Source: Eledone cirrhosa (Eukaryota). From it: DNA of 64,000 nt. How positions within the stretch are numbered: the first letter of the stretch is position 1; each line of letters begins with the position of its first letter. Shown in pieces: positions 7,794 to 54,372 of this stretch. Where the stretch lies: positions 69,006,001 to 69,070,000 of the forward strand of contig OZ024747.1 of NCBI GenBank assembly GCA_964016885.1. The letters are read 5' to 3'. A model generated the notes under the pieces. That model was not told where the DNA came from. It did not search any database and worked only from the letters and a program-made list of their open reading frames with translations. The position numbers were made by a program, and so were the translations under genes.

Positions 7794-7948
7794 AATAATA
7801 ATGATAAAAACGATGAGATGCTAGATCTTCGTTACATTTATTGAGGTGTGACACGCGTTTCGCTTAGTACAACACCAATATATCTATTGAAAACTACGCA
7901 TCGAGTGCTCACTTTGTTGAACTTACAGTAACTGGACGTTACATTCCC
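7794..7948. mobile_element. Family H pLTR, inverted arm plus tail end, followed by (TA)n
   Basis: gacacgcgtttcgct is the reverse complement of 66-80; catcgagtgctcac...gaacttacagt...gttacattccc matches 179-228. Confidence 0.7.
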
Positions 7949-9760
7949 TATATATATATATATATATATATATATATATATATATATATATATATATATA
8001 TATATATATATATATATATATAATATATATTCCCATGCATATGTGTACAACCCATGCATATGTGTACATAAATATGCATGTAAATATTTAGTAAACAGTA
8101 CACACATCCATACACGAATTAAAAGACAAAAATTATAAAGGTTTTCCGTTTATTTCTGGAACGTAGATAATTTGTTTTAAAGACACTACCACCGATAATT
8201 CTAAATAGTTACATAACTATTTGGATGCAAGGAGTTGATTGGATCCCAGGCAAATTTGGATGTTTTTACAAGCAAGTTATTTACAGAGCGTTGAATCCAC
8301 AAAATAGATCATTGAATTTCACCTAGTAGCGAAATAGTTAAGCAACCGTGAGCAGCGGGAGTATTCTCTATCATTCTTTTTTTTATAAGATAATTATTGG
8401 CTAGTTGTGAATTTTGTTTTTGTTTTCACAATGGCAAATCACCCAATGTATCCATGCCTAGAACATCCTGGAGATGTTTCGTTCCAATCATAATTGCCTT
8501 GCTCACTTTTTATAGGAAACCTAGGTGAAAATCAATATACCCAGCAGTGGAACACTTACACCCTAGCATAATTCTTCTGTGTCATCATAGAATTAAAGTA
8601 AATAATGAAGAATAATCTATCTATTTATCTATCTATCTATCTATCTATCTATCTATCTATCTATCTATCTATCTATCTATCTATCTATCTATCTATCTAT
8701 CTATATGTGTGTGTGTATGTGTATGTATGTGTATGTGTGTATGTGTGTGTGTGTGCATTTATATGCTGAGATAAATAACAAATAGTGAGTCCGTGATAAT
8801 ATACAAAAATATTCTATCACACATTCACACATACATGCAAACACAAATTTACACACACACATATAGAAATATATATAACTACGTTTTTTCTGCCACCGAG
8901 GAGGTCACAGTGTATATATATATATATATATATATATATATATAAATTGCAACAATGTGTAGATTAAGATCTTGTAATTGCAAAAAGGGTATAATTACTT
9001 TAACGAAAGATAGAACGAAAAAAAAAAAAAATTCCCCAAACAAAAAATAAAATAACAAATACACAAAAAACAAAAATACAATAAACAAAAAAAACAAAAC
9101 AGAAAAAAACAAAACAAAGATAAAAAGAGGAAAAAAAGAAGCTTCCATTTCGTATGTAGCATTGAAGGGAAGCCTTAGAAAGCTTCGTCTTGGTCAATTT
9201 AGTAAGTGTTTCTATCTGGACTGACCAGCTGTCCTCGTCCCATCGATATTAATCTAAATGCTAGTATATCAGTTCCATTTGGAGGTGAACATTTATCCAT
9301 TAGCTGTCAGTCCATCACTACTTCATCTATTAACTTGTCAATCTCAGCCGATTTCCAAAGCGAGAGCGTGTTTTTGTAAATTACTTTTACTTTACAAACA
9401 ACCACAGCAACGCATGTAAGTATGTATGTATGTATGTATGTATGTATGTATGTATGTAAATATATAAGCATATGTATTTGTATCTCTCTCTCCATATACA
9501 TACATACATATATATATATATATATGCAAATATATATATATATATATGCATGTATGTATATAATATATATATATATATATATATATATATATATATATGT
9601 GTGTGTGTATGTGTGTGTGTGCATATGATGGTGAGGGTATTTAATGTAGCCAACTGGAATATAAGAAAAATCTCTTGAGTTATTCGGAGTCGTTTATTGA
9701 ATCCGGGAGTCGGGGGAGATAACTGGTTTATTTAGAAGTTTTTTTTACATTATCTTATTT

Positions 9761-10461
9761 GTGAGTATGTTTGTGTGTATATGTATGTGTGCCTGTGTGT
9801 GCGTGCGTGCGTGTGTGTATGTATGTGTGTATGTATGTGTATGTGTGTGTGTGTATATGTGTGTATGTGTGTGTGTGTATGTGTGTGTGTGTGTATGTGT
9901 GTGTATGTGTGTATGTGTGTGTGTATGTGTGTGTATTTGTGTGTATGTGTGTATGTGTGTTGTGTGTGTATATATGTATGTGTGTGTATATGTATGTGTG
10001 TATGTGTGTATGTGCGTGTGTGTATGTGTGCATGTGCGTGTGTGTGTGTGTATATATATATGTATGTGTGTGTATATATGTATGTGTGTATATATGTATG
10101 TGTGTATGTGTGTATGTGTGTATGTGCGTGTGTGTATGTGTGCATGTGTGTGTGTGTGTGTGTGTGTATATATGTATGTGTGTGTGTATGTGTGCATGTG
10201 TGTATGTGTGTGTGTATATATATGTATGTGTGTATGTGTGTCTGTGTGTGTGTATATATGTATGTGTGTGTGTTGTGTGCATGTGTGTGTGTGTGTGTTT
10301 ATATATATGTATGTGTGTATGTGTGTGTGTATATATATGTATGTGTGTGTATGTGTGCATGTGTGTGTGTGTGTGTGTATATATGTATGTGTGTATGTGT
10401 GTGTATATGTATGTGTGTGTATGTGTGTATGTGTGTGTGTGTGTGTGTGTGTGTGTGTGTG
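9761..10461. repeat. Compound (TG/TA)n microsatellite
   Basis: Direct inspection. Representative of many (TA)n, (CA)n, (GA)n, (TATC)n and (TATG)n tracts, e.g. 232-697, 10620-11220, 17326-17690, 32551-32880, 38510-38830, 49424-50146. Confidence 0.95.
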
Positions 10462-12788
10462 TTTTGTAAGGCAGCCATTACAGAGACTATAGAAAGTGTC
10501 CTCTATTAGTTGTATCATTAACCCCCTCCCCCTCAACAGACAACAATCAAATTACTGTAACACGAATATACTCAATGTATTAGGAAAGCTCTGTGATGCC
10601 AAGTGGGATTATCTGAACCACACACAACACACACATATACACCCGCACACACAAATCCACACACACATACGCGTATACATACACACACACACACACATAT
10701 ATATATATATGCGTATATATATATATATATATATATATATATATATATATATATATATATATATATATACATATATACATATATATGTGTGTGTGTGTGT
10801 GTGTGTGTATATATATATATATATATATACATATATATATATATATATATATACATATATATATACATACATACATATACACACACACACACACACATAC
10901 ACACACATATATATATGTATATATATATATATATATATATATGTATATATATATATGTATATATGTATATATATGTATATATATACATACATATATATAT
11001 ACATATATATATACATACATACATATACACACACATACACACACACACACACACACACACACACACACACACACATATATATATATATATATATATATAT
11101 ATATATATATATATATATAAGTATAGTTAAAGAGAGAGAGTGAATGAGAAAGAGAGAGAGTGAACGAGAGAGAGAGCGAGAGAGAAAGAGAAAGAGAAAG
11201 AGAAAGAGAAAGAGAAAGAGATAGTGATTTTTACTATCACAAGAGGGTGTTGAGATTTTTATCTAAGGCACCAGAATTAAACGCAACGTTTATTTTTTTG
11301 CGAACACCGCCGTGAGATCTGCAGCTGTCCGAGGGATTGATGACTGATCTTTAGCTTGACTCTCCCTATCTGATATCGGCTCTTCTCTGTCTCCATGGTC
11401 TGACGGTTACACAAAATAATTATTAGAAACGGACAAAATAGCGTCATTATCCCACTTTTCTTGAAAAAATCTCGGTTTAATTCCGCTGATATTGGTGCAT
11501 TTCAGTTCTTCTAACTCTTCACGTCTACTGTGTTAGTCACAGTTGTTATAATATTATTGCAATACTATTACTATGCTTAGTAATACCACCTCGAGCAACG
11601 AATATATGGTTTGAAGACTATAATCCCCAACCCCAAAGTGATTTAGTAAGAGAGAGAGAGAGAGAGAGAGAGAGAGAGAGAGAGGAAAAGAAAGAAAGAG
11701 AAAGAGGGGAGAGACGGAGAGAGAGAGAGAGAGATAGAGAGTGGAAACGAAGGGAGAGAGAGAAAGAAAGAAAGAGAAAGATGGAAAGGAGAGGATTGCG
11801 GAAAAGAAAGAAAGAGATAGAGGGAGAGAGGGAGAGAGGGAGAGAGGGAGAGAGGGAGAGAGGGAGAGAGAGAGGGAGAGAGAGAGAAAGAGAGAGAAGA
11901 GATTTATATGTGTGAGAAAGAGAGAAAATTTGTGAGTGTGATTTGTCAATGATCGAGACGAACCAGTCGGTTGATGTAACCCTTCTCATGATATGCAGCA
12001 ATGACAAAACAATATCGAACATCGATTTATTGTAATTTTGATTCTTCCGGCAAATAAGGGAGACAACTCCAGACATGTTTCCGTATAAATGGTCTCTAAA
12101 TTAGTTACAATGGCAACAATTTGTGGGGAGGGGAAAGTCGATTACATTGACCCCGATCAATGAAACGATCCTCTTAGGCGTATAAAGTATTTGGTCTAGT
12201 ATTAAGACACCCACAATAGTCTGGAGTAGTCTGGTCTAGCGTTATCATTGCTTCTGAACAGACCCACGTAGAACAGATAATAGGCTCAGGTCAAAAGTAT
12301 TTTTGTAATGAGTACTAGATACGTATTTTTTTGGTATGTGTTGCAAGTATATACATATACATTTACTGCACAGGAAATACGTACAAATAACATTACAAAA
12401 TATATATACTAAAACGATTTACAGAATAGTTAATTCTGTAACAATTTTCTTCCAACTGGTGGAATAAACGACAACAAAATGGTAAGGCCTCAGTACTGGT
12501 CTGTTGCTGAAAAGTAATGGTATTGTGATGATCAATAGACTGTGCCACGTTAAACCTGCTACACGATGATAAAAAAGAAAGAAAATTCACTATCGATACT
12601 CTAGTAGATATTAAGATGTTTAATTAGAAAATTGATTGAAGACATTAATCAGCAATAGAGTCGTGCCGAGTGGCCTATCTCCTCATTCACTGTTCTCCAT
12701 AAAACATCATAAAGTAAGGTTTAACCTGTATTGTTTTTCTATATTTTTCAAGCGATTCGCTCATTATCATTCCAACAATTTTGTTCGC

Positions 12789-52958: not shown

Positions 52959-53152
52959 GGAAAAAGTATGACCCCGACGGCAGAGCTCAAGCCGTTTCGA
53001 CGGCTATTTCTGGAGTCCAGAAAGAGCCGTCGAAACGGCTTCAGCTCTGCCGTCGAGGTCATACCTTTTCCTATTACCCACTCTACTACCCTAAATATTG
53101 AGTACTCTGGTGCGTTATGGTCCATCTGGTTCCTTACCACAATTCCTTCGTT
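52959..53152 (+). mobile_element. Family A pLTR fold-back plus tail, (TA)n both sides
   Basis: Palindrome centred on ctgga-g-tccag; tail atattgagtac. Confidence 0.8.
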
Positions 53153-53207
53153 TTATATATATATATATATATATATATATATATATATATATATATATAT
53201 ATATATA

Positions 53208-54372
53208 GTAATAATAATAAATTAGAAGACTAAAATCCAAAGAGGGCTCGATAAGGATAAATATATATCAAATATATAAGAACCGTAGAGCAAATATTTA
53301 TTAAAATAACAGATTAAAGTTTAAGCAAAGAATCGCTGCTTTCACCCTTAACGGGATCTTCTGAAACTAACAAAGTCAATCTGTAAACGCAGAAGTGGAT
53401 ATTTCAAAAAACGTTGCAACCGGAGGAAGACAGGAAGACGATACTTTGGTTCGTGGAAACGTTCCCTGGCAAAGAACGGGAAAAAACGAATATAATACGT
53501 CATTAATAGGAGCGGTGAAAAACAATTACGCGCAAAGACAGAACCACATTTATGGTATAAAAGAGGTCATAGACTAATGTTCTCTTAGGTGGTTCATAGA
53601 GACGTTCTCTGGCAATGAACGAAAGAAACGAAGATAATACGTCATATGTGAAGCGTGGAGAACAATGGCACGCAAAAACAAAACCACGTAAATGGTATAG
53701 CTGAAGTCGTAGACTAAAATTCCAAGTATGTGACCGAATGAATCTCCGCGTCAGAGTTAAGAACAAAGTAAATAAATACAATACAGAAGTAATAGAAATT
53801 AAATAAATACATACACGCATACAAATACGTACATATACAAGCATACGCGAAAACACTTACCATAGGTATACAAAACCACGCACATATAAATATGTGTGTG
53901 TGTGTATGCGTGTAAACAAATAAATAAATAATTAAATAAACGTATATAAATAAATAAATCCGTATATAACAAGCGCACACACATACCTACATGTAAATAC
54001 ACAAATGTTCGGAGACGTAAGTCAACCAAAACATGAAGTACACATATACACACACCCTACATACGTACGAACCTGCATACTCACACAGACGCAAAACTCC
54101 CGTATACACATAACCAAACCATATGTACCAGAATATATAAAATTATACGCCGTAACATATACAATCAAATATACGTACGAGAAGGTATACGTACCTTCAC
54201 AAAACATACAGGTAATATATACTTACCTATACAAATAAGTAATGGTATAAACAAAACATATACTTAGCTACCACATCAAGACGTAAAATATCCACGTATA
54301 GATCGTACTATCCGTTAGGGTATAACGTGGGGCTGTAATACAGGAAAGTTTTGTGCAATTTATGTTTAATAA
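53208..54372 (-). mobile_element. Family J long 3' fragment with tail, (TA)n both sides
   Basis: Contains the J arm (53300-53369) and tail hairpin gctc-ta...ta-TC-gagc at 53246-53291; upstream extent inferred from the (TA)n boundary. Confidence 0.5.

Follow-up and report, generated by a model that had tools for sequence, protein, structure and literature searches.

Repeat families at the locus

The window analysed here, a stretch of 64 000 nucleotides from Eledone cirrhosa (assembly GCA_964016885.1, contig OZ024747.1, positions 69,006,001 to 69,070,000, forward strand), is AT-rich and dense in (TA)n microsatellites and in a dispersed repeat resembling a short interspersed nuclear element (SINE). 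Self-comparison and a scan of microsatellite flanks in the window revealed about ten unrelated short repeat families, which occur mainly as head-to-head insertions having a short end on one side and a long one on the other (Table 1). These ends, inverted head to head, 5' truncated and with a tail on one side only, are of the pseudo-long terminal repeat (pLTR) type seen in endonuclease-bearing (EN+) Penelope-like elements (PLEs), and the Penelope-like identity proposed in a preliminary description of this DNA is supported. The long end contains a bulged hairpin (RCTC-stem-YY-GAGY) followed by a tail, and the short end stops at a nearly constant distance before that hairpin.

Both kinds of end had been claimed for every family; they are present in A, B, C, E, H, J, K, L and N, and a further family (14169, minus strand) shows the long end only. 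Family C has a single long copy, in which the 3' arm of the hairpin is degenerate (CGGT). Most of the (TA)n-joined families with a hammerhead ribozyme carry the hairpin, the exceptions being I and M, and most short ends are joined to microsatellite, which is (CA)n in E; the exception is that of H (Table 1).

The families are likely members of the Hydra clade of PLEs. Their insertion target is (TA)n, both in the window and in the reads of family A. Full type-I hammerheads with a palindromic stem III match the descriptor upstream of the short junction in L, N and J; B has the hammerhead core, and by eye the hammerheads of E, C, H and A are degenerate or truncated. A canonical hammerhead with an extended palindromic stem III is also what the accessible part of the clade table of Craig 2021 gives for Hydra (PMC8557442, supplement).

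The Naiad clade, which has no canonical hammerhead, was ruled out by the full hammerheads in the window; two published Naiad 3' ends, in the portions accessible, have no bulged hairpin by eye. An Rfam scan of the window gave no hammerhead family among the best 150 of 358 matches, those listed being spurious microRNA-type ones. In both hammerheads of family J (53363 and 36761, minus strand) CAGAAGA replaces CTGANGA, with the stems intact.

Position of the short ends

Each of 18 short ends in the window was aligned to the long arm of its own family, and the distance was taken between the R of RCTC and the last base that the two have in common. As the preliminary description had proposed, short ends stop just before the hairpin: the distance is 3–8 nt in 15 of the 18 and exactly 5 nt in ten. 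It is 5 nt at five ends of family A (14711, 18146, 18385, 36855 and 52959), two of B (361 and 32215) and two of C (970 and 37720), and 8, 7, 4, 4, 5 and 3 nt at the single ends of E, J, K, L, N and H, respectively. The distance is fixed across families and independent of both the length of microhomology to the target and the distance to the hammerhead. Microhomology to the target at the junction, described earlier as usually TA, is at least 1 nt in 17 of 18 ends and at least 3 nt in 11 (3–5 nt in these 11, 1 nt in six and none in one), but it amounts to just 1 nt in family B. There the junction lies at the canonical distance and a longer TATA around 13–17 nt upstream is left unused, an indication that the junction is determined by distance and not by annealing.

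The strict motif RCTC-stem-YY-GAGY has ten matches in the window, all with a microsatellite 35–70 nt downstream; 60 shuffles of the window gave a mean of 2.5 matches, with a microsatellite close by in 0.33. When 150 complex microsatellite flanks were scanned without bias, short ends from families A, B, C, E, J, K, L and N were recovered, and the remaining flanks in which similarity continued were SINE breaks, low-complexity matches, internal TA runs and one-off matches.

Raw reads from two restriction-site-associated DNA sequencing (RAD-seq) runs (two samples of one study) were aligned to the family A segment 37322-37689. In these runs 1,830 and 1,564 reads pass out of the element into (AT)n at 37600 (agreement 0.85 and 0.86), that is, 5 nt before the ACTC that begins at 37606. 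At the long end, read depth continuing into TA is around 10,750 and 11,980. Of the further right-hand loose ends listed, that at 37565 reflects an indel of this A copy and that at 37667 a variant tail with TA at its end. A joint between neighbouring short and long ends like that at the 18385 copy is also present in the reads (37600 to 37689, opposite strands).

Could the junctions simply lie at any TA-rich site, the pattern being a product of how a reader selected them? The arms are AT-rich, the families were picked by eye and three of the 18 ends are outliers. Nevertheless, when random junctions were placed on TA sites over the last 60 nt plus the tail and counted per family, the observed eight of eight families within 12 nt before RCTC had P of about 8e-7 (~1e-6; the 12-nt window was chosen post hoc). 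The unused TATA of family B, the read peak of family A and the equal offset in independent loci (below) also speak against chance, which is refuted for family A and for the family of the foreign locus L029 and is barely credible as a general account. The scatter over TA-rich sites that the preliminary description had named as the contrary outcome was not what we found.

Table 1. Coordinates of PLE-derived insertions, arms and hairpins in the window
Family	Feature	Position	Strand	Details
A	Longest head-to-head insertion, between (TA)n runs	36855..37677		Short end 36855 (-), long end 37677 (+); from alignment, and reads over 37322-37689
A	Hairpin 1, ACTC-4 bp-TT-GAGT	37606..37629	+	Short junction maps to 37597-37600
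A	Fold-back insertion	14712..14867		Hairpin 14796-14819 (+)
A	Fold-back insertion	18147..18336		Hairpin 18265-18288 (+)
A variant	Short end within the (TA)n run after the 18147..18336 copy	18385..18476	-	
A	Fold-back insertion	52959..53153		Hairpin 53080-53103 (+)
A	Copy	1642..1820		Hairpin 1713-1690 (-); (AG)n adjoins the short end, an outlier at 19 nt before RCTC
B	Insertion	32020..32215		Hammerhead core 32151 (-), hairpin 32085-32067 (-), short end 32215
B	Insertion, arms without common sequence	361..445		Left arm runs from hammerhead to short end; right arm is the final 24 nt of the tail
B'	Insertion	31184..31376		Hairpin 31323-31341 (+); outlier short end (14 nt)
C	Insertion	697..970		Degenerate hairpin 752-732 (-), short end 970
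C	Insertion, two short-type ends	37720..38000		5 and 16 nt before RCTC
E	Insertion	6782..6945		Hairpin 6833-6814 (-); (CA)n adjoins the short end
H	Insertion, non-overlapping arms	7794..7948		Short end joined to SINE fragment
H	Long arm	61..231	+	Hairpin 137-186
J	Long arm	53208..53369	-	Type-I hammerhead 53363-53323 (core CAGAAGA), hairpin 53291-53246
J	Solo short arm	36699..36772	-	Hammerhead 36761-36721
K	Insertion	36399..36672		Hairpin 36578-36607 (+)
L	Insertion, 497-bp identical inverted arms	18773..20186		Full type-I hammerheads 19991-20125 (+), 19105-18971 (-)
L	Hairpin with 71-nt insert	18902-18822	-	
N	Insertion	44346..44729		Hammerheads 44625-44674 (+), 44550-44501 (-); hairpin 44436-44410 (-)
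Further family, unlisted earlier	Hairpin 14169-14150 and long end	14080..14169	-	No short arm found

The same hairpin in foreign loci

Metagenome contigs were searched with a Hydra-type hammerhead pattern alone, the hairpin forming no part of it, and yielded 91 loci, including one viral locus, with 90 distinct matches; an exact 35-nt family A pattern matched no metagenome locus. The strict hairpin is present in 26 of the 90 distinct matches, or 31 with one mismatch allowed, and several of the hairpin-bearing loci adjoin a Hydra-type reverse transcriptase (RT) gene. RCTC lies 39–70 nt after the hammerhead cleavage site in 25 aligned foreign hairpins. Among 35 sequences (anchors only), with kinship of the loci uncorrected, positions 2 and 3 of the upper stem pair in 31 and 28, by several pair types and above all of 2,000 shuffles (maxima 28 and 27); position 1, which pairs in 30 of 35, is not above the shuffles. 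Pairs of the G-U type number 12 against three A-C in the upper stem, an excess that places the fold on the sense strand rather than on the complementary DNA (cDNA).

Twenty-three hairpin-less matches could be aligned to a hairpin-bearing relative: 15 diverge 0–11 nt before RCTC (one of them at a contig end), three at 14–19 nt and five past RCTC, three of these five being degenerate or inverted long copies. Six of 14 hairpin-less copies with a TA-type run had a relative of at least 85% identity, and of these five end 0–12 nt before RCTC and one inside the hairpin; the other eight have no close relative and were excluded from the count. A covariance model of the 25 foreign hairpins ranked ten window hairpins at the top (five of A, and those of N, B', J, B and E; E 5e-5 to 0.14).

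One foreign locus, L048, is a whole element with a two-hairpin leader, an open reading frame (ORF) of 702 aa and a 3' pLTR ending in (TA)n, whose junction lies 5–7 nt before the point where hairpin 1 would begin. Short ends are consequently not peculiar to inverted arms, since this one closes a full element that encodes an RT and has the direct orientation at its 3' end. The L048 protein has 3,342 relatives among 8,000 scored and agrees by eye with published Hydra motifs; its structure model is of low confidence (pTM 0.35), and the structure matches are RTs only, telomerase included. One homologue carries a GIY-YIG domain (PF01541). A Pfam search of the foreign-locus proteins gave no match in any of nine, and no relative turned up in a protein search of viral contigs.

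Several foreign loci have features of their own. L092 (1-2535) holds a complete, circularly permuted Hydra-type PLE unit filed in a bacterial metagenome-assembled genome; the DNA is probably the host's, and the unit is either a circle or a tandem that has been collapsed. In L011 (132-446) two long ends face each other across TA, tail to tail, and L083 (44-301) folds back through the tail. An 818-aa frame upstream of the hammerhead in L074 (442-2895) has no Pfam match, and its final region carries a DCGVY motif reminiscent of Ulp1-type proteases. The Hydra-like hammerhead match at L001 (3001-3036) lies on a G+C-rich viral contig with neither hairpin nor (TA)n and is probably unrelated.

A second hairpin and the long end

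All five complete leaders (L026, L029, L048, L074 and L092, the last found by protein alone) contain two hairpins, 36–45 nt apart, before the ATG, and by eye the published 5' end of Hydra-1_Ajap, as far as accessible, contains both. In the L029 family, the one with all end types, three of three long ends (two in L011 and one in L042, measured against the L029 hairpin 2) stop 3–7 nt short of that hairpin, and the distance from the short end (L028) to hairpin 1 is 0–6 nt. The long ends in the window lie 35–70 nt after GAGY, compatible with a hairpin 2 that was not copied, and the window tails are about 60–140 nt. Thus the long end appears to follow the same rule as the short end, its tail being hairpin 1 plus a spacer, and it is probable that either end marks an internal start governed by a hairpin of its own.

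The preliminary description implied that the long end is the RNA's 3' end, with the hairpin governing the short end only. In such a reading the long end could also be set independently, and hairpin 2 would have another role, such as translation control or protein binding. Hairpin 2 is indeed not visible in the window, the tail after GAGY ranges from 35 to 70 nt among window families, and long ends are tied to hairpin 2 in one family alone. Against this, full elements carry the second hairpin just past the long end: it lies at 36–45 nt in every complete leader, inside the range of long-end distances, and the three testable long ends stop 3–7 nt before it. We therefore consider a rule confined to the short end quite unlikely.

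GAGY is usually followed by RCTY (37626-37633, 6814-6810, 7906-7913 and foreign loci), giving a self-complementary octamer of the GAGTACTC/GAGCACTC type, which could offer alternative pairing or RNA dimerisation.

Two internal starts as the proposed mechanism

Given the observed anatomy, junction positions, sense-strand fold and link to an RT gene in relatives, the explanation that we favour as a whole, and consider probable, is that the window elements are 5'-truncated terminal remnants (pLTRs) of about ten Hydra-clade PLE families inserting into (TA)n, and that in this clade two hairpins set two internal starts of RT. The tandem or circular transcript would contain the hammerhead, then a leader with two bulged hairpins (RCTC-stem-YY-GAGY-RCTY) 36–45 nt apart, and then the ATG. 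An RT/GIY-YIG protein, probably a dimer, would bind each hairpin; the 3' end of a nicked (TA)n would be placed on UA-containing bases around 5–9 nt upstream, and copying would proceed away from the hairpin. A start at hairpin 1 would produce the short end, and a start at hairpin 2 the long end, with hairpin 1 plus the spacer as its tail. Both target strands would prime, one per site, and the truncated cDNAs would be fused head to head, frequently within the hammerhead or close to it, to give an inverted insertion with a one-sided tail. Initiation a few nucleotides 5' of the hairpin, already suggested in the preliminary description, remains the best reading of a distance that varies neither with microhomology nor with hammerhead position. 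The binding of RT to the hairpins is what we infer from sequence comparison.

A single priming does not suffice, and two are required: the two arms have no sequence in common at 361-445 and at 7794-7948, both ends of 37720-38000 are of the short type, and there are short ends in direct orientation. The same copies bear on another account of the short end, as a stop rather than a start: cDNA begun at the long end would fold back, copy itself, halt at a protein-bound hairpin and join the target by microhomology. Most window short ends are on inverted arms, and by eye the inversion centres often fall in the self-complementary hammerhead stems, as such an account would have it. It is nevertheless impossible for the arms without common sequence, which largely refute it, as well as for the insertion with two short-type ends, the solo short arm (36699-36772) and the L048 short end behind its whole ORF; we regard it as highly improbable.

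Points of 5' truncation and inversion often lie in or just before the hammerhead core (18147-18336, 32020-32215, 6782-6945, 361-445 and 36699-36772). Copies span the hammerhead cleavage site, indicating that uncleaved RNA was copied.

The main rival to two hairpin-set starts is that the hairpin directs a cut. The hairpins would then be processing signals at which the element's endonuclease or a host nuclease cuts RNA, or tandem or circular DNA, around 5 nt before the hairpin, with ordinary 3'-end priming or resolution to follow. Junction positions by themselves cannot separate a start site from a cut site. Moreover, in the accessible text of Craig 2021 the tail is ascribed to EN-mediated resolution of an intermediate (PMC8557442), and the D. 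virilis EN requires tail sequence for recognition and cleavage, as cited in the accessible part of Frangieh 2024 (PMC11167929). On the other hand, the latter source also reports that a Poseidon PLE initiates internally on unprocessed RNA and that 3' extensions leave the main product unchanged (PMC11167929). The G-U excess places the fold on the sense strand rather than on cDNA, and in the foreign loci the hammerhead cleavage site is 39–70 nt upstream, so that ribozyme cleavage does not make the short end. On this evidence a directed cut seems unlikely.

A number of observations weigh against two hairpin-set starts. Three window short ends are outliers (A 1820, 19 nt; B' 31184, 14 nt; C 38000, 16 nt), and RCTC and GAGY are predicted to pair weakly in C, E, B and one copy of A. 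The read evidence comes from RAD-seq of one study, its counts are of reads and not of loci, and six loose ends are listed per raw run (the smallest with 662 and 491 reads), with 622 rows beyond them. Among the foreign loci, the end of L013 falls within the hairpin, divergence begins 19 nt before it in L037 and 17 nt before it in L047, and the covariance model missed the hairpins of K, L, C and 14169. Hairpin 2 was not seen for any window family, and its link to the long end consists of three ends on two contigs of one family, plus a tandem join inferred in the accessible part of the Crog consensus. Finally, a Pfam search of 282 reading-frame pieces of the window found no RT or GIY-YIG domain, and tblastn of 16 Hydra-type proteins against the window gave a best E of 0.036. 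With no RT gene or protein link in the window, the clade assignment rests on RNA features.

A broader proposition, which we hold to be evenly poised, is that the duplicated bulged hairpin of Hydra-clade PLEs is a cross-phylum RNA signal, not described before, that docks the two subunits of a dimeric telomerase-like RT and programmes starts 5 nt upstream of each copy. The small RNA element is conserved between this genome and the consensus sequences of coral and sea cucumber, and its offset to the two junctions is fixed. If the proposition is true, an RNA without a usable 3' end (tandem or ribozyme-circularised) would be copied from both sides of a (TA)n break. There would be a molecular rule for the PLE tail and the inverted pLTR, explaining the one-sided tail that has long been puzzling, and a portable start-site signal for RT-based insertion. 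The proposition also bears on internal-template choice by the closest relatives of telomerase.

Other repeats in the window

Two copies of a PLE-like family (985-1555 and 63064-63476) have a minimal hammerhead (63358) and end at the same (TA)n junction without a bulged hairpin; this family is probably of a different clade. Another family (43556-43813, 50147-50212, 57650-57739 and near 54586) has a hammerhead core (43748, minus strand), a common (TA)n-joined end and no recognisable RCTC hairpin. The SINE-like repeat is found at 15303-15790, 31527-31971, 58278-58461 and about 20 other places, with several inverted pairs. A small element with terminal inverted repeats, resembling a miniature inverted-repeat transposable element, lies at 36272-36365, and tandem arrays occupy 24837-25210 (40 bp units), 26471-27809 (39 bp) and 45295-47743 (34 bp).

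Comparison with known systems

In the accessible portions of Craig 2021, Hydra-clade PLEs are C-terminal EN+ elements that target (TA)n, have close to their 3' end a canonical type-I hammerhead whose stem III is palindromic, and leave truncated copies in inverted arrangement and a one-sided tail (PMC8557442). The window families resemble them in target, hammerhead, inverted truncated copies and one-sided tail, and the supplement lists an Octopus Hydra family. They differ in that the window tails are about 60–140 nt as against the 30–40 bp given there, and no protein ties them to the clade. The origin of inverted ends with a one-sided tail is treated in that paper as an open question, and its main text, as accessible, contains no occurrence of 'hairpin', 'bulge', 'palindrom' or 'stem-loop' (PMC8557442). 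Among the published 3' ends, compared by eye over the parts available, Hydra-2_Amil and Hydra-2_Ajap have hairpin 1, Crog has a hairpin with one mismatch and Amil-1 is doubtful; Obim-1 and Ajap-1 finish in TA-like bases before any hairpin. Four 10-nt motifs had no match in the accessible part of the supplement, because the published copies have GAGC variants.

A single PLE has been studied in vitro. For this element, Poseidon PAc of Anolis carolinensis, the accessible text reports that both strands are cut and extended, that two internal starts bound the tail, that the template is uncleaved RNA and that a dimer is predicted (PMC11167929). Two RT start sites bounding a tail were thus already established, beyond what the preliminary description knew. 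PAc agrees with our proposal in its two starts, in the cutting and extension of both strands, in its AT-rich targets and in the predicted dimer. It belongs, however, to another clade and initiates in an AC-rich stem loop at the start of the ORF; by eye the RNA stretch of its Fig. S1 lacks the RCTC/GAGY motif, and Frangieh 2024, in the portions available, proposes no conserved per-site signal or distance rule (PMC11167929).

Earlier hammerhead-ribozyme work, as far as accessible, described truncated, hammerhead-bearing PLE ends that are dispersed and often form pairs on opposite strands; it concerned the ribozyme only, with no downstream hairpins or junction positions. The accessible main text of bioRxiv 10.64898/2026.07.22.740005 has no match to 'tail' or 'hairpin'. 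In the accessible literature, including passages of PMC8557442, PMC11167929, PMC3846280 and PMC13282606, a scope that excludes subscription papers, Repbase notes and figure images, we came across no account of this signal, of its being duplicated or of its offset. The tail, the inverted ends and the two starts are known, and the hairpin signal, its duplication and its offset appear to be new.

The template-boundary element of telomerase lies 5' of the template and stops the RT. The PLE hairpin is like it in that a helix beside the copied region would set a boundary for a telomerase-related RT, and the preliminary description had drawn this analogy for the short end. The analogy fails in its direction, since the hairpin is 3' of the copied RNA in every short end: the telomerase element is 5' and stops synthesis, whereas the PLE hairpin would fix its start, and would do so twice.

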